39,131 bases of DNA. Source: Bacilli bacterium. GTDB taxonomy: Bacteria > Bacillota_I > Bacilli_A > ML615J-28 > CAG-698. The notes beneath the pieces are model-generated. The model did not search any database, was not told the DNA's origin, and worked only from the letters and a program-made list of their open reading frames with translations. Below are positions 1,716 through 36,734 of this stretch, one piece after another. Every line of letters starts with the position of its first letter. Positions within the stretch are counted from its first letter, which is position 1. The DNA lies in the NCBI GenBank assembly GCA_028693535.1, contig JAQUVC010000002.1, forward strand, positions 1-39,131, written 5' to 3'. Made by a program: the position numbers and the translations under genes.

Positions 1716-1730
1716 TCTTTCACCTCCTGG

Positions 1731-1825
1731 AAAATAAAAACCTTTTTCAATAGACAGAAAAAGGTAAAAAACTCTTTAACCTCGGTAGGAAATTAAGCAT
1801 TTCTGCACCTACTGTCTACAGCAAT
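1731..1825 (-). promoter_or_regulatory. rplJ (L10) leader with terminator/antiterminator-type alternative folds
   Basis: Minus strand has a long-range helix UAGACAG (1818-1812) with CUGUCUA (1757-1751), enclosing GUAGG...CCUAC. The 3' strand of that helix forms the loop of the hairpin ACCUUUUU (1765-1758) / AAAAAGGU (1747-1740), which is followed by UUUUAUUUU. Position and logic match the Firmicute L10 leader. Confidence 0.55.
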
Positions 1826-1865
1826 TAAAACGTATTAACTATTTTATTTTATTATTTTTGGTTGA

Positions 1866-10191: not shown

Positions 10192-11601
10192 TTATTGGTT
10201 TCTTAGTCGCTTAGGAATGACGATAATAAACTTTGTTCCTTTTGGTTCATTATGTTCGACCTGTATTTTTCCCATATGGGCTTCAACAATTGTTTTTGCA
10301 ATTGCTAGTCCAAGTCCATTACCACCTGTTTCACGACTACGCGCTTTATCTTCACGATAGAATCGTTCAAAAATATGTTTTTTAGTTTCTTCACTAATTC
10401 CGATACCCGTATCAGCTATTTCTAAATGAACATCATTATTGATTAATGTCAATGTGATCGTTATCTTATCTTTTTCATTGGTATATCTTAGCGCATTGTC
10501 GAGAATGATAATTAACAGTTGTGTCATTTTATTGCGATCTACCAACGCACTGACTTCTTCTAATTTCAATACAAATCCTTTTCTTTGTAGCTCTGCTGTT
10601 TCTTTAAATATTTCTGAAGTTTCTTTTACAACTTCTGTCAAGTTAACATTCTCTAACTGAATCAGATCACGATAATTATCACTTTTTGCTAGTTGTAATA
10701 AATCAGTTGTCAATTTGTTCAGCCGTGCAACTTCTTTTAGTGATATTGCAATGTCCTCAGAGACGTCATACACAGTCAAATTGGATTTGGTAAGTGTATT
10801 TTCTAATTTGCTTTGTACAATGGCTAGTGGGGTTCTTAATTCGTGAGAGGCATCACTAACAAAAGCTATTTGTTTGTTCAATGTCTCAATAATTGGACGC
10901 ATTGCTGTAATACTTAAAATGATGCTTGCCACAGCACCCGCTAGAATCATAAGGATTGCTGAAATAATATATATTTTCACAATCTGATCCCGTGAATTCA
11001 CTTCACCATTAACCATTACTAACACCTTAGCATATTTTACCAAAGGAACATCTTCATTAAACATCGAAAATCCTCGTGTCATGAATGTATATTCTTGAGT
11101 TCCAGTTGTTACTGTTTCAAACTCCACAAAGTGATCAAGATTATTAACATCAATATTGAAGATGCTATTTTGCTCAGCAGTGGCAATTGCACTGATGTAT
11201 TCATCCCACAATTCTTGGTCAAAGGAATCCCATGGCCCTAATAACCCTTCATTAATACGCGAAAAGCGATCATAATCATGAATTACATAGGATAAAAGAT
11301 TGCTAGAATAATAACGAAACACTTCATCATTGGTATAAAAAATCATCATAATTCGTACATTATTGTTGTTTGCAACAATCAAACGATCACTTTCAGCAGA
11401 ATACTCAAGACTATCTTTGATATTTTCTTCAGCAGCAAGAATATCTTTTTTAATATCATTAAAAAAAGTATTATTGATTGAAGAAATAGCAAGTACCCCT
11501 AGCAAGATAAAAATAGCAAAAAAAGCAATTAAGTTAAATAATATTAACTCTCCATATTGCCTTTTAATAAAGTCTTTGGCGAAATTATTCTTCTTTTTCA
11601 C
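10192..11601 (-). CDS. Sensor histidine kinase (HisKA + HATPase_c) with ~170-aa extracytoplasmic domain
   Basis: 469 aa. Two TM helices (about residues 20-42 and 205-227). H-box SHELRTPL, N-box DNALRYT, G-boxes DTGIGI and GGNGLGLAI. GTG start overlaps the regulator gene by 17 nt. Confidence 0.9.
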   Translation of the reverse strand: MKKKNNFAKDFIKRQYGELILFNLIAFFAIFILLGVLAISSINNTFFNDIKKDILAAEENIKDSLEYSAESDRLIVANNNNVRIMMIFYTNDEVFRYYSSNLLSYVIHDYDRFSRINEGLLGPWDSFDQELWDEYISAIATAEQNSIFNIDVNNLDHFVEFETVTTGTQEYTFMTRGFSMFNEDVPLVKYAKVLVMVNGEVNSRDQIVKIYIISAILMILAGAVASIILSITAMRPIIETLNKQIAFVSDASHELRTPLAIVQSKLENTLTKSNLTVYDVSEDIAISLKEVARLNKLTTDLLQLAKSDNYRDLIQLENVNLTEVVKETSEIFKETAELQRKGFVLKLEEVSALVDRNKMTQLLIIILDNALRYTNEKDKITITLTLINNDVHLEIADTGIGISEETKKHIFERFYREDKARSRETGGNGLGLAIAKTIVEAHMGKIQVEHNEPKGTKFIIVIPKRLRNQ

Positions 11602-12259
11602 TCCACATATAACCTACATTTCTGATAGTTTTTAGGTAACCATTGTAATCATATTCTTTTAGTATTTTCCGCAAATTAGAAACATAAACTTCAACAACAC
11701 TCCAAACAGTATCAGAATCAAAGCCCCAAACACGATTAAATAATTGTTCTTTGGGAATAATAATTTCTTTATTACGAACCAAATATTCTAAAATATCATA
11801 CATTTTACCAAATATTTCACATTTTTTGCCATAAATACTAACAGCTTTGTGAATGACATCAAACTTCATATCTTTAAATACTAATTGCAATCCCTGAAAA
11901 TTGTTATTATAACGGCGTAACAAGGCTTCCGTACGCGCTAATAGCTCATCACGATAGAAAGGCTTGGTGATATAATCATCTGCACCTAGTCTTAATCCTT
12001 TTACTTTATCATTAACACTATCTCTTGCTGTTAGGATTAATACGGGACAATTACTGAATTGTCTTATTTTACTTAAAACTGTAAAACCATCAACATAAGG
12101 AAGCATAATATCGAGAATAATCAAATCATATATATCTTGTTCTGCTTGAAACAATGCTTCTTCACCATCATAAACAGCATCAACTTCAGCTAAGTTTTTT
12201 AACATTTCACAAATGCTTTTATTTAAATTAGGGTCATCTTCCACAACCAATATCTTCAT
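11585..12259 (-). CDS. OmpR-family response regulator
   Basis: ORF to 12289. MKILVVEDD start at 12259 is preceded by a GAGGTGG SD. Receiver Asp in LIILDIMLP. Winged-helix C-terminus (LKTIRNVGYMW). Confidence 0.92.
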   Translation of the reverse strand: MKILVVEDDPNLNKSICEMLKNLAEVDAVYDGEEALFQAEQDIYDLIILDIMLPYVDGFTVLSKIRQFSNCPVLILTARDSVNDKVKGLRLGADDYITKPFYRDELLARTEALLRRYNNNFQGLQLVFKDMKFDVIHKAVSIYGKKCEIFGKMYDILEYLVRNKEIIIPKEQLFNRVWGFDSDTVWSVVEVYVSNLRKILKEYDYNGYLKTIRNVGYMWSEKEE

Positions 12260-12319
12260 GTTGCCACCTCTAACAATATTATACATCATTTTCTTAATTA
12301 ATTCTTAAAAAAAGGAAAT

Positions 12320-12357: not shown

Positions 12358-12750
12358 TTAACGTTTTGAGAATTGTGGTGCTCTACGTGCGCCTTTAAGT
12401 CCATATTTCTTACGTTCTTTTGCACGAGGATCACGAGTAACCATACCTGCTTTTTTAAGAACAGATCTAAAGTCAGCATTCACTTCCATCAATGCTCTTG
12501 TAATTCCATGACGAATTGCTCCTGCTTGGCCAACGATACCGCCGCCATCAACATTTACCAATACATCATAACTACTCGCTGTGTTAGTTAGGTTTAATGG
12601 TTGTAAAACATCTAATCTAACAGCTGCTGATGGAATATAATCAGTGAATTCGCGTTTGTTAATTGTAATTTTACCACTGCCGGGAACTAAACGAACACGG
12701 GCAACAGAGCTCTTACGTCTTCCTGTACCATAATATTGTACTTGTGCCAT
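12358..12750 (-). CDS. rpsI: 30S ribosomal protein uS9
   Basis: 130 aa. [12 protein letters not shown] and the C-terminal [18 protein letters not shown] signature. Confidence 0.97.
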
Positions 12751-12763
12751 ATTAATTTACCTC

Positions 12764-13201
12764 CTAGCCTTTCAAATTATAAACTTCAGGTTTTTGTGCT
12801 TGATGTGGATGTTCAGGCCCAACATAAACATAAAGTTTTCGATACATATCATCACCTAATCTTGTTTTAGGTAACATTCCTCTGATGGAAGCTTCAAGAA
12901 CTTTTTGTGGTTGAAGTTCTAGCATTCTTTCAGCATTTCTACTTTTTAAACCACCAGGATATCCTGAATGGCGATAATACATTTTGTCCGCTAATTTATT
13001 TCCTGTTAATGCTACTTTCTCAGCATTAACAATAATAACATAATCTCCACAATCAACATGTGGTGTAAAAATAGGTTTATGCTTACCTCTAAGTAATGTT
13101 GCAACTTCGGTAGATAGGCGACCCAATACTAAATCTTTTGCATCTACAACAAACCATTTTCTTTCAATCGTTTGTATATTTGCCATATAACTTTTGTTCA
13201 T
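12764..13201 (-). CDS. rplM: 50S ribosomal protein uL13
   Basis: 145 aa. [33 protein letters not shown]-terminal [15 protein letters not shown]. Confidence 0.97.
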
Positions 13202-13294
13202 ATTTTTCCTCCTGCTTTTTGGTAAACTATCAAATCGTGGTCATTTGATTATAGAGGGCTTCTTTATTGTGGGAAATAAAAATATACCTCACAT

Positions 13295-13323
13295 ATAATA
13301 CTATATTGTTAACTTTTTGTCAA
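13295..13323 (-). promoter_or_regulatory. Sigma-A-type promoter for rplM-rpsI
   Basis: Minus strand TTGACA (13323-13318), 17 nt, TATTAT (13300-13295). The ~85-nt leader contains the hairpin ATCAAAT-GACCACG-ATTTGAT (possible L13-leader-like element, not verified). Confidence 0.65.
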
Positions 13324-13419: not shown

Positions 13420-13450
13420 TAAAAAAGTAGGATCTTATTGATACCTACTT
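13420..13450 (-). terminator. Rho-independent terminator after the heliorhodopsin gene
   Basis: Minus strand AGTAGG-TATCAATAAGAT-CCTACT (13449-13426) followed by TTTTTTAAA. Confidence 0.7.
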
Positions 13451-13461
13451 TATTGTCCTTT

Positions 13462-14247
13462 TTATGGTTGCATTGCACCAAATAAAACAAGCCACGCAAG
13501 AATTGATTTTGCAACTAGGCTTAAAACGATGTACGTTCTTTCGCCATATAAATAATCTTTCCATTTCCCTAATTTTAGGTATTGGGCGATCATATTGAAT
13601 GGGAAAGCATTGAATGCCAAGAAATAAGAAGCTAAAATTGCCCAAGCAAACCATGGTGCATTAGCTATTTCTCCAGAGCCAAAAATATAAAGACCAATAA
13701 CAATCCAAGGTGTGATACCAGCAATGGAACCCCAAGCAAATGGTCCCCATTTTACCTTACCTTTTTCAAATCCTGAATTAAATTGCTCCATTAGTAAACC
13801 AAATAAATTCATACAAACATTCAAAACAAAGATTAATAGCAGTGAAGCAATATCTACTACACCAAACAATACCGATGTTAAGACAATCATAATTGATGAA
13901 CTTAAAGCATACTCGAACCAACGAAATTTATTGATTCCTTTTTTTAAATCTTCAACATAAACATTAAATATTTTGTTTGGTATAGAAATAATAAAATGCG
14001 CTAACGCTGAAAGAAACAAAAATAAAGCAACAAGAATACCAAATGGTAAAATAAATAATTCTCTTCCTTGTAAGACCAATCCTTCACCTAAGACAAATGT
14101 TAGGTAATTTTGTACAATCATCGGTTGAAATGCTGCTAGTTTGTCAATTACAAAGTAAGCCAAGAAAACCATAGCAATGCCTTGAACCAAATGGAATCCA
14201 CCCATAATTAAATTAAAACGGCGTAATTTTAGAAATTCTTTATCCAT
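13462..14247 (-). CDS. Heliorhodopsin (7-TM retinal-binding protein)
   Basis: 261 aa, about 7 hydrophobic helices. Motifs match heliorhodopsin 48C12 as recalled: GGFHLVQ, LSALAHF, FRWFEYALSSSIMIVL, IAGITPWI, GERTYIVLSLVAKSILAW. Lys247 (AAA, 13507-13509) is at the Schiff-base position and Glu112 at the counterion position. Confidence 0.9.
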   Translation of the reverse strand: MDKEFLKLRRFNLIMGGFHLVQGIAMVFLAYFVIDKLAAFQPMIVQNYLTFVLGEGLVLQGRELFILPFGILVALFLFLSALAHFIISIPNKIFNVYVEDLKKGINKFRWFEYALSSSIMIVLTSVLFGVVDIASLLLIFVLNVCMNLFGLLMEQFNSGFEKGKVKWGPFAWGSIAGITPWIVIGLYIFGSGEIANAPWFAWAILASYFLAFNAFPFNMIAQYLKLGKWKDYLYGERTYIVLSLVAKSILAWLVLFGAMQP

Positions 14248-14267
14248 AATACCCCCCTTTTGACTTA

Positions 14268-14295
14268 ATTATATCGAAAAAAGAAAAAAAAGCAA
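14268..14295 (-). promoter_or_regulatory. Sigma-A-type promoter for the heliorhodopsin gene
   Basis: Minus strand TTGCTT (14295-14290), 16 nt T-rich spacer, TATAAT (14273-14268). AAGGGGGG SD before the ATG. Confidence 0.55.
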
Positions 14296-14351: not shown

Positions 14352-14678
14352 TTATTTAATCAACTTGTTGTATTTTTTGCTACTATCCTTTGCAAGTGAA
14401 ACAGGGTATTTGTCTGCATTCTTTTTCATCTTATTGATAATGATTTCCTCAATATTGAAGTTATATTTTTCTGCTATTTGAATACTATAAACAAAAACAT
14501 CAGCCAATTCCTCTGCCAAGCGCTCAACACTTTCAACTTCATCAGACCATTGGTATAACTCCAGTAGTTCACAAGCTTCCAATACCAATGACTTTGCAAG
14601 GTTACTACCTGTATGAAATTGTTCCCAATTTCGTTCAGTAACAAATTTGTTAATTAATGCAATAATTTTCTCATTCAT
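14352..14678 (-). CDS. MazG-like nucleotide pyrophosphohydrolase (small all-alpha NTP-PPase)
   Basis: 108 aa. RNWEQFHT...LVLEACELLELYQW and EELADVFVY carry the ExxE...ExxD metal-binding pattern of the MazG/dCTPase-like family. AAGGAG SD. Confidence 0.75.
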   Translation of the reverse strand: MNEKIIALINKFVTERNWEQFHTGSNLAKSLVLEACELLELYQWSDEVESVERLAEELADVFVYSIQIAEKYNFNIEEIIINKMKKNADKYPVSLAKDSSKKYNKLIK

Positions 14679-14750: not shown

Positions 14751-15659
14751 TTAAGTAATAACATTACGATTAAAAAGTCCATAGATTTGTTTCACCCCAG
14801 TATAGGTAATAAAGCATTGGGGGTCAATGTGCTTCGCAATATTTTTATATTCTTCTGCTTCATAACTTGACACAACGGTATCAAGGACATATTTTGTTTT
14901 ATTTGTATATGCTCCTACAGCAGTATAAATTGTTATTCCATGATTAAATTTCGCAATTAATGCTTCTCGCATACGATTTTTTTCTTCAGTGATGATACTA
15001 ACCTTCATATACTTATAAATAGTATGAACCTTATCAAGAACTAAAATGCCTATGATTAGGCGAATGATTGTATAAACAGCAGTTTCAATTGTTCCAACAA
15101 AACCCGAAGCTAAAATAATGATCAAATCAACGCTCAAAGAGAATTTTGCGAAAGAAATATTCTTTTTAAACGATACATATTGACTGATAATATCCATTCC
15201 TCCTGTGGAAGAACCAACACGAAGAGCAATACCACACCCCAATCCAGTCAATAAACCACCAAGAACTGATAGTAATAATTTGTCATCAGCTAAAACAGCA
15301 AAAGGATTTAGTCCAAAATTGGCTTTTAAATATTCAAGCAAGGCAATAAATATTGTTTGCATCGCAATAGAGCCAACGCTTAAAATTGCAAATCGTTTAC
15401 TAACCCCTTTATAACCAATTAAGAATAAAGGTACATTAAGGATAGCAATAAATATACTTTTAAAGCCTGGTATCTGCTTTCCTGTAATGTCAACAGTGAT
15501 TGTTTCAATGATTTGAGAAATACCAGTGACTCCACCAGCATAAAATGAACCCAGATCTAAAATCCAAACAATCGCTAAACAGTAAATTAGTGTTCCCACT
15601 AACATACCAGAAACGACAGATACATTACGTTTTTTAAAGAAACCAACAATGCTGTTCAT
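14751..15659 (-). CDS. YitT-family membrane protein with C-terminal DUF2179 domain
   Basis: 302 aa, 5-6 TM helices. GGVTGISQI and GGMDIISQY repeats typical of YitT. Soluble C-terminal ~80 aa (VSIITEEK...ITYTGVKQIYG). Confidence 0.8.
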   Translation of the reverse strand: MNSIVGFFKKRNVSVVSGMLVGTLIYCLAIVWILDLGSFYAGGVTGISQIIETITVDITGKQIPGFKSIFIAILNVPLFLIGYKGVSKRFAILSVGSIAMQTIFIALLEYLKANFGLNPFAVLADDKLLLSVLGGLLTGLGCGIALRVGSSTGGMDIISQYVSFKKNISFAKFSLSVDLIIILASGFVGTIETAVYTIIRLIIGILVLDKVHTIYKYMKVSIITEEKNRMREALIAKFNHGITIYTAVGAYTNKTKYVLDTVVSSYEAEEYKNIAKHIDPQCFITYTGVKQIYGLFNRNVIT

Positions 15660-21779: not shown

Positions 21780-23927
21780 TTAATTTTTGGTGTGTTTGAT
21801 TTTTCTAAAGCCATAGCCAACCCCTGTGCTAATAATCATAACACCTATACTCCATAGTAATAAATTGTGATTGTTGTTATTATTTTTTTGAAAAATAATT
21901 TTATCACCCATTTTTGCTGTAATCAGGGAGGTCTTGTTGAAACTATCTGTAAAAGCAAAGGAAAACTTTTCTAGACTATCACCAAAGCGGTTAATGGTAA
22001 TATGACCAATGGGAGTGTTATTCGCTTGCGCGATAAAAGTAAAATCAAGTAACTTTTGACGTTGATAATGAAGGCTACCAACATCATAAACAAGGTTCAC
22101 CATTGCTTGATATTCTTGATCTAATGCCAACCAAGGAAGCAATATCTCACTATCAGCAATTGGATATGACACAATTTCTTCCTTATCCTGATTCATTAAG
22201 GTGATTTCAAAATAACGAATCGTCTTGTCAGGATCTTGGAAACTAACACTCATCGTTGTATTAATATTGGTTAATTCAATCAAAGGAGCTTCCCTTATAA
22301 CCTTAACAATATAAGTAAATGATAAATCATGAGTGTCTGTATGATCAAGATTCCGATATGTCACTTTATTTATTGTTAATTGATGATTGCCATACGTATG
22401 AGGAGCAACAAGATTGATGACTAATTTATTCGTCGATTGATAATAAACAAAATCAGTTGTTTCTTGTCCATCAATGAAAAGTTTCTCAATCGCTTGAATT
22501 CCTGTAACTTCATAAATGAGTTTATATGCTTGTGAAGCATACACTTCAAAATCAGCACCATTATGCATATCCTCAACAAAAGCGATTTGTTTGCAAGAGA
22601 TGAAAAAACAGAATGTATTTATTTCACCATTGGCACCAACCAAATCCAACCTAACTTCTTTTTCTTCGTTCAAGGCATAATTGTTTAATATTTCATTGCC
22701 ATCAATATATGCTTTTCCAGTAAATAAAAGTTTATAGTTTATTGGATAAATACCACCATTTATTATATTCACTTCCAAAGGAACTTCAATTTCCTTTACA
22801 AGCGAAAACTCAATGCCAACTTTACTTTGATACCTTGTTGTTTGCTGATACTTCCCATAAATCTGAGGATTGTAAGCTGGGTCATATTTTTCTTCAACCA
22901 TCTCTGCTAAACCATAAAGCGTAGTCAACCTCTCTTCATCCCAATAAAAATCTAATAACCAAACTTTGTTTTGATGCAAATATAATATTCCTCTATTTGT
23001 GTATAAAAACATACCTTCATAGTAATCTTTATTTTGTGTTTCCCCGATGATTTCCATTTTTCCGAGATCAAACAAACGAATTTTTTCTGAGCTAATCAAT
23101 AAAAGCAAGCCGTTTTTCCCCATTTGCGTATAACAAAAGGTATCATTTAAATGAACTTTGTGAATGCTTTCTAAACTATCACTAAAATAACATAATTGAT
23201 GGTCAATCATCAAGCAAAGCATATTGTCATATAAACAATAGCTTTGAAAATGAACTACATCATTAATTGCAATGTCATTGATGATGCGCATTTGTGCATC
23301 TAGTACAGCAATCCCTAATACATTATTACCAATACCACTATAAGCAAAATCTCCACCCGATAGTGGATCTTTACGAAAGAATAAAAATGATCGATCACCA
23401 TCAATAATCAATCCCAACCCCACTTCATCCTTTGCTCCTCCTAAGGCATACGTGAAAATTTGATGGTCAGCGGTTATTTTAATAATCATAATATCTTTTA
23501 AAGCCAACTCTTGGCAATAACTGATAATTGTATGATCATAATTGGCTATTGATCCTAGAATATAGAAATCACCATCATCGGTAAAAAACTGATTGATTTC
23601 AATCATCGCATCTCTTATAACTAAAGTGTGATTAACTACCATACCATTCTGATTAAGCTCTAAGAAATAAAGTTCTGTCCCTTGAAAATAAATGATACCA
23701 AGATTATCAAGGTAGCGAACAATATGAGGATTCGTTATGTCATTAAGATCGTATTTCCAACCACTCCTATTTTCAATCAAATAGTTTTCTTCATCTTCTT
23801 TGATTAAACTTGTGATTCCATCACTCCAAATGATTTCTGCTTGTACTATTATCTCTTCTGTTATCATTCCCCAATTAGAATTATAAGTAAATATCATGCT
23901 TGCAAATAACAATGCGATTTTAATCAT
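21780..23927 (-). CDS. Hypothetical tail-anchored surface protein (paralogue B)
   Basis: ORF to 23969. The ATG at 23927 (MIKIALLFASMIF, signal-like) has an AAGGAGAAAG SD and overlaps the upstream stop by 8 nt. C-terminal TM LLLWSIGVMIISTGVGYGF plus RKIKHTKN. Shares the IEVP.-.NI.N...F.G..Y..G..I module with the upstream gene. No family recognised. Confidence 0.6.
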   Translation of the reverse strand: MIKIALLFASMIFTYNSNWGMITEEIIVQAEIIWSDGITSLIKEDEENYLIENRSGWKYDLNDITNPHIVRYLDNLGIIYFQGTELYFLELNQNGMVVNHTLVIRDAMIEINQFFTDDGDFYILGSIANYDHTIISYCQELALKDIMIIKITADHQIFTYALGGAKDEVGLGLIIDGDRSFLFFRKDPLSGGDFAYSGIGNNVLGIAVLDAQMRIINDIAINDVVHFQSYCLYDNMLCLMIDHQLCYFSDSLESIHKVHLNDTFCYTQMGKNGLLLLISSEKIRLFDLGKMEIIGETQNKDYYEGMFLYTNRGILYLHQNKVWLLDFYWDEERLTTLYGLAEMVEEKYDPAYNPQIYGKYQQTTRYQSKVGIEFSLVKEIEVPLEVNIINGGIYPINYKLLFTGKAYIDGNEILNNYALNEEKEVRLDLVGANGEINTFCFFISCKQIAFVEDMHNGADFEVYASQAYKLIYEVTGIQAIEKLFIDGQETTDFVYYQSTNKLVINLVAPHTYGNHQLTINKVTYRNLDHTDTHDLSFTYIVKVIREAPLIELTNINTTMSVSFQDPDKTIRYFEITLMNQDKEEIVSYPIADSEILLPWLALDQEYQAMVNLVYDVGSLHYQRQKLLDFTFIAQANNTPIGHITINRFGDSLEKFSFAFTDSFNKTSLITAKMGDKIIFQKNNNNNHNLLLWSIGVMIISTGVGYGFRKIKHTKN

Positions 23928-25746
23928 TTTTCTTTCTCCTTTGCGGAATAACCAAACCAATAGCAACACCTATAATGGCAATTGTTAAGAGAATATAAAT
24001 ATAGTACGATGATGAAGATTGCTTTTGTTCCTGATAACGAATGGTTATTTTATCTGTTTTTGGGGGACTCTCTACTTGATATTGTTGCTTAAAATCGATA
24101 TGCTCCATGATAGAAATATCAGTCATACCAAGCGATTTTTTCTTTACTGTGAATGTATAATATAGTGTTTTATCTACTCCTTGAAGTTCAAGTAAGTAAC
24201 TACCTTCTTGCCAACAAACGTAACCTGCATCAATTTTTTCACCATTTAAGTAGCCTATGCCATTAAAATCAAGAATCAAGCCACAATCATAGGTTTCTTT
24301 ATTTACAATATTTATTCTCACCGGCACCTCGATTACAGAAGGTAAAACAAAAGTATACTCTCCTAAGCTATACTCATATAAATTGGTTGTTTTTCCAAAT
24401 ATACTACCATTTTGATTGTTTGTTAGCGCCCTACTTGATAAATATAAGCCATTAAAAGATACCGACGCATCGTTTATTTTTATATGCAAATGGCTTTCCA
24501 AATAGGGTTGTTGGTAACCATTCCATTTTGTTAGACTCGAACAATAAATAATGTTGTTGATAAGATATACAGAAACAGGAATATCATTGTTTGTACTAGG
24601 CCTTTCTGTTTGATGAATCATTTGCCAATCACTCGAAAAAATTATAAATTTGTAAGCATAAGAATTCCCTTTTTTCATATTACAACAAATGGTAATGTAG
24701 TCCCCAATAGTAATTGCATAATCGTAGAATCTTCCTTCATCATAACTAAGTTTTAATTTGGTTTCATTCAACATATTGAGTTCCCAATCATAATAAGAAA
24801 ACATCAAACCATTATCCCAATAATCATGACTGATAATTGCTAACTTATCTTTTGTTATAACCAGCTCTGACTTCTTAAATCGATATTGATTATCTAAAGA
24901 AACATGATTTTGGTATTCTAAGCGGTAATCGTAGCTTACGATCGCACGGAACTCTCCGTCTTCATTTGCATTAGTAAAATAACCAGAACCAGCAAACTGC
25001 ATATAAATATAAAGTTTATCATTGTTCATTTGTGCTCCATATAACTGATTATTACCATCGTTTCCCAGCAAACTAACCTCGTGAACCTGAAAATTTTTCT
25101 TATTTACAAAGCCAACAACAACATTTTGGTTGTTTACATGATGAGAATAAAAATCGCCATCATTAGCGAAGGTAGTACCAACAAAATAATATCGATCTTG
25201 ATAGTTAAAAATACTATTTCCTTCACTAATATGATTCCCTCCTAATAAAATTTTGTCTTTTAAAACTCCATTGGTATTAAACTTTGCAATTACAATCATA
25301 TTCGCTTGCGTAATGGTTTCATAGTTACCAATTATAATAATATCCTCATCATCTATCAGGGCATCTTTAATCACACCATAGCCCCAGTCGATAAGAACTT
25401 CTTCCCAAATGAGTTCCTCGTTTTCATAATAAGCAAGATAAGGAAACTCTGGTAAGTTTTCCGTTCGAAAAGGATGATTACCTGTATCCACTCTTCCAAT
25501 TAGATAATAACTGTTATCACTGATACCAATGGTTTTTGTGATATGATAATCATAATTATGTTTCAACAAGAATAAATCCTTACTAAATTCAATTCCCTTT
25601 CTATATTCATCCTCATCAATTTTAGTAATCACTTCCTCATCATCAAAATATGGTACAACATCTTCTTCATCTGCAGTCGTAAATACCTCATTATGACAAT
25701 AAAATGGTGAAAATATTAGCATTAAGTTCAACAATAATAGTTTCAT
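23920..25746 (-). CDS. Hypothetical tail-anchored surface protein (paralogue A)
   Basis: 608 aa. Signal peptide MKLLLLNLMLIFSPFY. Repetitive beta-rich ectodomain (YYLIGR, IIIGNYE, YYFVGTTFANDGDFYS, propeller-repeat-like). C-terminal TM YIYILLTIAIIGVAIGLVI plus PQRRKKND. AGGAGGAAG SD. Confidence 0.6.
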   Translation of the reverse strand: MKLLLLNLMLIFSPFYCHNEVFTTADEEDVVPYFDDEEVITKIDEDEYRKGIEFSKDLFLLKHNYDYHITKTIGISDNSYYLIGRVDTGNHPFRTENLPEFPYLAYYENEELIWEEVLIDWGYGVIKDALIDDEDIIIIGNYETITQANMIVIAKFNTNGVLKDKILLGGNHISEGNSIFNYQDRYYFVGTTFANDGDFYSHHVNNQNVVVGFVNKKNFQVHEVSLLGNDGNNQLYGAQMNNDKLYIYMQFAGSGYFTNANEDGEFRAIVSYDYRLEYQNHVSLDNQYRFKKSELVITKDKLAIISHDYWDNGLMFSYYDWELNMLNETKLKLSYDEGRFYDYAITIGDYITICCNMKKGNSYAYKFIIFSSDWQMIHQTERPSTNNDIPVSVYLINNIIYCSSLTKWNGYQQPYLESHLHIKINDASVSFNGLYLSSRALTNNQNGSIFGKTTNLYEYSLGEYTFVLPSVIEVPVRINIVNKETYDCGLILDFNGIGYLNGEKIDAGYVCWQEGSYLLELQGVDKTLYYTFTVKKKSLGMTDISIMEHIDFKQQYQVESPPKTDKITIRYQEQKQSSSSYYIYILLTIAIIGVAIGLVIPQRRKKND

Positions 25747-36658: not shown

Positions 36659-36734
36659 TGGTACACTCTCGGGGGCTCGAACCCCGGACCCACTGATTAA
36701 GAGTCAGTTGCTCTGCCAACTGAGCTAAGAATGC
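36659..36734 (-). tRNA. tRNA-Lys (anticodon CTT), CCA encoded
   Basis: Manual fold of GCATTCT TA GCTC AGTTGGCA GAGC A ACTGA CTCTTAA TCAGT GGGTC CGGGG TTCGAGC CCCCG AGAGTGT A CCA. 7/4/5/5-bp stems, GTTCGAGC T-loop, anticodon loop C-T-CTT-A-A. 76 nt. Confidence 0.9.

Follow-up and report, generated by a model that had tools for sequence, protein, structure and literature searches.

The question raised by this locus is whether a 261-amino-acid, seven-transmembrane open reading frame of a Bacilli contig encodes a genuine heliorhodopsin (HeR) and, if so, whether the place where it lies tells anything about the function of HeRs or the source of their chromophore. The window, by which we mean the whole stretch of 39,131 nucleotides analysed, carries the coding sequence at 13462..14247 on the reverse strand, as delimited by the ORF call and supported by profile matches and by an AlphaFold2 model compared with Foldseek. 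The original prediction had read the full-length ORF as a heliorhodopsin, and the profile-HMM search that it proposed agreed: the protein matched Pfam PF18761 (Heliorhodopsin) over the whole profile (positions 1-242 of 242, E 6.7e-88, 294.5 bits with a cut-off of 26.7). It also matched the NCBIfam equivalog NF038020 “heliorhodopsin HeR” with 274.1 bits, above the cut-off of 100, so that naming by NCBI's pipeline would be automatic. Among PDB sequences, the top phmmer matches of the window protein were TaHeR (5e-49) and 48C12 (1e-46), and the solved HeRs share 38-43% identity with it. The AlphaFold2 model (pLDDT 82, pTM 0.79) has seven helices and the HeR-typical β-hairpin in the AB loop, with strands at residues 43-52 and 56-66. 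All ten best Foldseek matches of the model in the PDB were HeRs, with TM-scores of 0.81-0.90 to structures of TaHeR and 48C12; type-1 rhodopsins appeared first at E 2e-4 and reached a TM-score of no more than about 0.75. At the level of sequence and predicted fold, the ORF was thus confirmed as a genuine, intact heliorhodopsin. The predicted span of 13462-14295 held at its lower boundary and not at its upper one, since the coding sequence reaches only to 14247 and position 14295 is the first base of a -35-like hexamer.

The window HeR is unremarkable, belonging to a populous family and being named as such by standard annotation. At E <= 1e-10, more than 4,200 homologues were found, and relatives 86-89% identical to it already bear the NCBI name “heliorhodopsin HeR”. 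In JGI data, three HeRs (P0067, P0068 and P0094) carry the name [quoted passage not shown], apparently a misannotation.

Subsequently, we consider whether the residues that bind retinal are in place. H19, H84, E112 and K247 of the window HeR align exactly with H23, H80, E107 and K241 of 48C12; beyond the portion present in the PDB phmmer alignment, this numbering presumes the 48C12 sequence as we take it to be. In TaHeR, E112, K247 and H19 correspond to E108, K238 and H23 (with a tag offset of six residues) and H84 to the second His. Both alignments agree with the assignment first made from the sequence, of Lys247 (codon AAA, 13509-13507, reverse strand) to the Schiff base and of Glu112 to the counterion, and the peptide blocks on which that assignment drew (GGFHLVQ, ALAHF, RWFEYAL and LVAKSIL) were all found. 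Kovalev et al. listed the 17 polar residues most conserved across the HeR family and noted that Met in place of Q213 is common; 16 of the 17 are kept here, the exception being Q213, replaced by M219. The polar set of the Schiff-base cavity is present (E112, H19, H84, S80, S116, S243, N12, N106, R109, Y113, Y97 and E236). Across 193 distinct relatives K247 is invariant, and the conserved polar and fenestration positions are invariant or nearly so, while the mapped residues of the retinal pocket are identical to those of the Trichococcus HeRs save S207, where these have T. A 2025 preprint by Kornilov et al. defined the fenestration motif as an aromatic pair at 162/206, Gly169 and small residues at 166/210 (48C12 numbering). 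This motif is intact in the window HeR (F170, S174, G177, F212, N213 (= N207) and P216), and by its residues the predicted fenestration is of the carotenoid-binding type. Furthermore, Kovalev et al. described Tyr202, Asn142 and a kept Asn138 as the pattern of bacterial subfamily 8 and not of actinobacterial subfamily 1. The window HeR has N147 (I142 in 48C12), Y208 (L202) and the kept N143 (N138), from which residue pattern we infer membership in subfamily 8.

In an alignment of the HeR subfamily, about 110 of the 261 columns do not vary, and every aligned sequence has LAWLVLFGAMQP at the end of its C-terminal helix. The subfamily is 64-71% identical across metagenome-assembled genomes (MAGs) labelled Anaerolineaceae (Chloroflexota), Clostridia, Bacilli, Acholeplasmataceae/Izemoplasmatales and Fusobacteria, and identity of this order across such differently labelled MAGs suggests horizontal spread among taxa of anaerobic digesters and landfills.

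The protein has 16 lysines and arginines on the side of its N-terminus as against 2 on the opposite side, which fits the inverted topology with a cytoplasmic N-terminus that is expected and predicted for the window HeR. That the protein could transport protons, driven or gated by light as in the viral V2HeR3, we hold to be extremely improbable. A transporting HeR does exist (PMC9448325), but Kornilov et al. report transport in the mostly viral subfamily 2, whose members all lack the fenestration motif, whereas it is present in the window HeR, and the fairly close relative TfHeR does not transport ions.

Pairwise dN/dS values among the eight members of the window's clade were 0.02-0.08 where dS was not saturated, and thus the HeR gene is functional. 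The orthologue of locus L012, which lies in the same synteny (CAYPLR010000003.1, 10001-10783), is interrupted in frame by TAA at codon 60 (Q60*) and is either a pseudogene or the product of an assembly error; the title of this record, “Bacteroidales”, is probably a mis-binned label.

The gene had also been credited with its own promoter, a strong Shine-Dalgarno site and its own terminator, and our data support this, with the addition that some transcripts might enter from upstream. On the reverse strand, a -35-like hexamer TTGCTT (14290..14295) is followed after 16 nt by the -10 hexamer TATAAT (14268..14273), both read from the sequence and both recurring in relatives. The Shine-Dalgarno site AAGGGGGG (14252..14259, reverse strand), likewise read from the sequence, lies 4 nt before the ATG; at this position L011 and L012 have AAGGGGGA. 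Downstream, an intrinsic terminator (13421..13451, reverse strand), identified by folding and by its presence in relatives, has the stem AAAGUAGG(U)AUC / GAUCCUACUUU and then a U-run; its hairpin folds with -12.5 kcal/mol (z -3.9). Automated scans passed over both elements: the consensus promoter scan did not score the promoter because TTGCTT has only three of six matches to the -35 consensus, and the terminator scan did not call the hairpin because its stem contains a bulge. Recurrence in relatives speaks for them nevertheless. TTGCTT-17-TATAAT precedes the HeR gene in L009 and L010, and L014 has it with a weaker -10; in all three the genomic context differs from that in the window. The AAAGTAGG...CCTACTTTTT stem is kept after the gene in L009, L012, L013 and L014, with one stem mismatch in L011, and its loops differ among L009, L013 and L014, where the gene sits in other surroundings. 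Since these elements recur where the contexts differ, the promoter, the gene and the terminator appear, from comparison of the loci, to move together as a unit. In silico, the HeR gene is therefore supported as a self-contained transcription unit running from a putative sigma-A-type promoter to its own terminator. The terminator scan of the window found no terminator between the MazG-like gene and the HeR gene, so read-through transcription is possible. The near-identical NCBI assembly L001 has TATAAA for the TATAAT of the window, a single-base polymorphism in the -10 box.

Further searches around the gene gave little. A repeat search for mobile-element boundaries around the cassette returned only short matches of low identity, and no tRNA adjoins it. 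Rfam gave no relevant structured RNA around the gene, whether at its gathering threshold or with E relaxed to 1. When metagenome contigs with the MazG-like protein were searched for an HeR-free junction of the MazG-like gene and rplM, a single unrelated locus was obtained (49% identity, different context).

The neighbours of the gene are as first described, a setting of housekeeping and fermentation genes: the Pfam matches agree with a MazG-like/YitT/metG block on one side, rplM-rpsI on the other, and ackA, pduL and pfkA elsewhere in the window. Upstream, the 108-aa MazG-like protein (PF12643) is encoded at 14352..14678 and a YitT-family membrane protein with DUF2179, of interest as context only, at 14751..15659, both on the reverse strand. 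Downstream, the next transcription unit begins with the promoter TTGACA-17-TATTAT (13295..13323, reverse strand; 11 of 12 consensus matches, present also in L011 and L012) and comprises rplM (12764-13201) and rpsI (12358-12750), which together span 12358..13201 on the reverse strand and were assigned by ORF calls and L13/S9 matches. It is followed at 10192..12289 on the same strand by an OmpR-type response regulator (11585-12289) and a HisKA histidine kinase (10192-11601), both assigned by Pfam. Other Pfam-assigned genes encode MetRS, phosphofructokinase (PfkA), acetate kinase (AckA) and a PduL-type PTAC, and the gene order cysS-mrnC-rlmB-sigH-like-rpmG-secE-nusG-rplKAJL is of the Bacilli type. 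Both this order and the “Bacilli bacterium” titles of MAGs would fit a monoderm host. The statement that the 39 kb hold no crt or blh genes for retinal synthesis also stood, as none of the 37 window ORFs of at least 90 aa matched a carotenoid or retinal family of Pfam. Five ORFs (729, 608, 289, 109 and 315 aa) had no or weak Pfam matches; the 289-aa product is soluble, carries an HELGH motif and does not resemble the membrane protein Blh.

Several other features of the window were observed. The 5' leader of rplM (13205-13295, reverse strand) is near-invariant in L011 and L012 despite diverged intergenic DNA around it, and in its minimum-free-energy fold CCCUC is base-paired to the Shine-Dalgarno site GGAGG. 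It matched no Rfam family, the L13 leader included, and on these grounds it may be an undescribed ribosomal-protein leader. Two large adjacent ORFs upstream of dnaE (21780-23969 and 23920-25746, reverse strand; 729 and 608 aa) have no Pfam or NCBIfam match and are conserved in L001 and L012. An L10 leader upstream of rplJ (RF00557, 83 bits; 1726-1839, reverse strand) and a tRNA-Lys(CTT) gene (36659-36734, reverse strand) are ordinary.

The copy and its context had been proposed as a handle on HeR function and on the source of the chromophore, and this part of the original prediction did not hold. Neighbour clustering over 80 related HeR loci showed that the order metG-yitT-MazG-like / HeR / rplM-rpsI-RR-HK is common only to L011 and L012, which have about 82% nucleotide identity. 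In the other clade members, distributed over four further housekeeping contexts, the gene is preceded by ribF and pfs and followed by rpsO and pnp (L010), lies between a lysine aminomutase gene and a gene for a large membrane protein (L013), or between genes for a methyltransferase and 5-FTHF cyclo-ligase (L015). In L014 it follows a gene for a tadA-like deaminase, and in L009 the contig starts 97 nt upstream of it; in both, a BspA-type LRR surface lipoprotein gene and then genes for a fused ATPase/permease ABC exporter (one in L009, two in L014) lie downstream. Neighbours thus differ even among HeRs that are 84-89% identical, and as they are not conserved in the clade, they say nothing about function. 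Moreover, what had seemed special about the locus is the published norm for HeRs: only 173 of 448 helR genes are predicted to be co-transcribed with a neighbour, so that solitary helR genes are the majority (PMC11109279), blh is rare around HeRs, and a full retinal pathway has been reported in one of 381 HeR-only genomes. One Christensenellaceae MAG (CAXXXL010000003.1, 804-864 kb) holds three HeR paralogues within about 60 kb (L026, L033 and L059).

The MazG-like and YitT proteins, whose comparison across related genomes had been suggested, were rejected as HeR partners, being common only to the syntenic L011 and L012. Similarly, the clusters of response regulators and histidine kinases that loose neighbour clustering placed near HeRs proved to be an artefact of merged paralogues. 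HeRs are known in Firmicutes, strict anaerobes included, and histidine kinase and response regulator genes have been reported as enriched near them (PMC8612252); as such a pair lies two genes downstream of the window HeR, the latter could be imagined as a photosensor feeding it. We consider this highly improbable. The pair is kept only in the syntenic L011 and L012, the Christensenellaceae pairs are different paralogues, whose kinases have about 353 aa and adjoin an ABC transporter, the only models matched by the window kinase are generic PhoR/WalK-like ones and the scores stay under the cut-offs, and the ribosomal-protein operon with its own promoter stands in between.

The sole recurrent neighbour across the 80 loci was DNA photolyase, found at 14 of them. 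TfHeR, from a sludge Trichococcus, absorbs at 542 nm, transports no ions, and binds and stimulates a CPD-II photolyase through E97, R162 and K227 (PMC9769723). The window HeR might act likewise, green light received by it stimulating a CPD photolyase whose gene lies elsewhere in the genome. Its closest characterised relatives are indeed Trichococcus HeRs (L051, L054 and L083, congeners of TfHeR; 67-69% identity over residues 7-261), and the photolyase-linked loci are spread over several subclades, the nearest outgroups L016-L018 among them. However, these loci belong to the sister clade (Trichococcus, Acholeplasmataceae, Anaerolineaceae and Erysipelothrix among others), and none to the clade of the window: neither PF00875 nor PF03441 was found in the 39-kb window or in the fetched flanks of the eight clade members. 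In addition, the positions of TfHeR E97, R162 and K227 are occupied by N95, F160 and K225, in a register inferred from 263-aa homologues, so that the Lys alone is retained; F160 is common to every member of the clade. This counts for less than it might, because the binding positions vary even among photolyase-linked HeRs and are thus poor predictors of photolyase binding. Taken together, we regard the role of a photolyase helper as unlikely, though deserving to be kept in mind.

The habitat bears on another reading. Over 20.8 kb, contig JAQVRR010000002.1 in the “Bacilli bacterium” MAG GCA_028700955.1 matches the window at about 100% identity, and contigs of JGI 3300014206 and of several ENA and Logan runs match it with nucleotide identities of 99.7-99.9%. 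The JGI metagenome derives from the composite leachate cistern of a municipal landfill in southern Ontario with abundant methanogens, and PRJEB12083 is a study of wastewater and effluent. In a methanogenic leachate cistern or in wastewater light is scarce and oxygen-dependent retinal synthesis is unlikely. Since strong purifying selection acts on the gene despite habitats nearly without light or oxygen, a role without self-made retinal or light is conceivable for this cassette-borne clade, and such a role might consist in sensing an exogenous retinoid or carotenoid or in action of the apoprotein in the dark. Along these lines the protein could be structural, could bind lipid or carotenoid instead of retinal, or could be active as apoprotein; the lack of retinal genes in the 39-kb window is in keeping with this, and rhodopsin function independent of light has a precedent (PMC10730872). 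Nevertheless, the 193 relatives show no variation at K247, at E112 or anywhere in the retinal pocket, as selection for chromophore binding predicts, the sludge relative TfHeR binds retinal and responds to light, and photolyase linkage in the sister clade implies light-exposed hosts. We therefore judge a role independent of light or of self-made retinal to be improbable, and light independence, input to the two-component system and proton transport are each less likely than the explanation to which we now turn.

The product of the window gene is very probably a functional heliorhodopsin, one of the bacterial HeRs that do not pump ions. In this explanation, all-trans-retinal would be bound at K247 as a Schiff base, with E112 as counterion and H19 and H84 lining the cavity. 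The pigment would absorb green light at about 540-550 nm, a range expected because its pocket residues match those of the Trichococcus HeRs except S207 vs T and because TfHeR absorbs at 542 nm. A slow photocycle would follow, and the protein would presumably act not by moving ions but through its lysine-rich cytoplasmic loops, where its contacts with a partner protein would change. The source of the retinal would probably be external, in line with the general proposal for HeR-only monoderms, and the intact lateral fenestration motif would admit retinal or carotenoid. The partner would be encoded away from the HeR gene; by homology, the leading candidate might be a CPD photolyase elsewhere in the genome, a tentative suggestion that is weakened by the missing adjacency and the missing binding residues.

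Beyond its correct annotation the window HeR adds little, as one more solitary HeR among thousands. The residual interest is ecological, in a conserved photoreceptor of leachate and wastewater anaerobes, and lies also in a gene that appears to move with promoter-like and terminator elements. One species (99.7-99.9% identity) occurs in leachate and wastewater metagenomes from different places, a further instance of a photoreceptor kept where darkness is assumed, and among the papers searched none mentions both heliorhodopsin and landfill. Trichococcus, Proteiniclasticum and Jeotgalibaca, cultured relatives whose HeRs are about 68% identical, offer better material for experiments than the MAG.

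Among the known systems, TfHeR resembles the window HeR in its HeR subfamily, in a Bacilli host from a waste-treatment habitat and, judged by the Trichococcus HeRs, in its pocket (S207 vs T). It differs in that TfHeR lies in an operon region with the CPD-II photolyase, whereas the window HeR is solitary between the MazG-like gene and rplM. 48C12 (PDB 6SU3 and 6UH3) shares 41-43% identity, a TM-score of about 0.82, the AB-loop hairpin and the fenestration residues, and has I142, L202 and Q213 in place of N147, Y208 and M219. TaHeR, from a Thermoplasmatales archaeon (PDB 6IS6 and 7U55), is the best structural match (TM-score 0.85-0.90, 38-40% identity) but has an archaeal host and belongs to another subfamily. 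With OcHeR-OmrDE (PMC11109279) and AbHeR-GS (PMC9529153) the window HeR may share the logic of a non-transporting HeR that modulates a partner through its cytoplasmic surface. Unlike in these two systems, neither an ABC exporter nor a glutamine synthetase gene stands next to the HeR gene in the window, but its clade relatives L009 and L014 do have ABC exporter genes starting two genes downstream, an order that recalls the published OcHeR-OmrDE arrangement.
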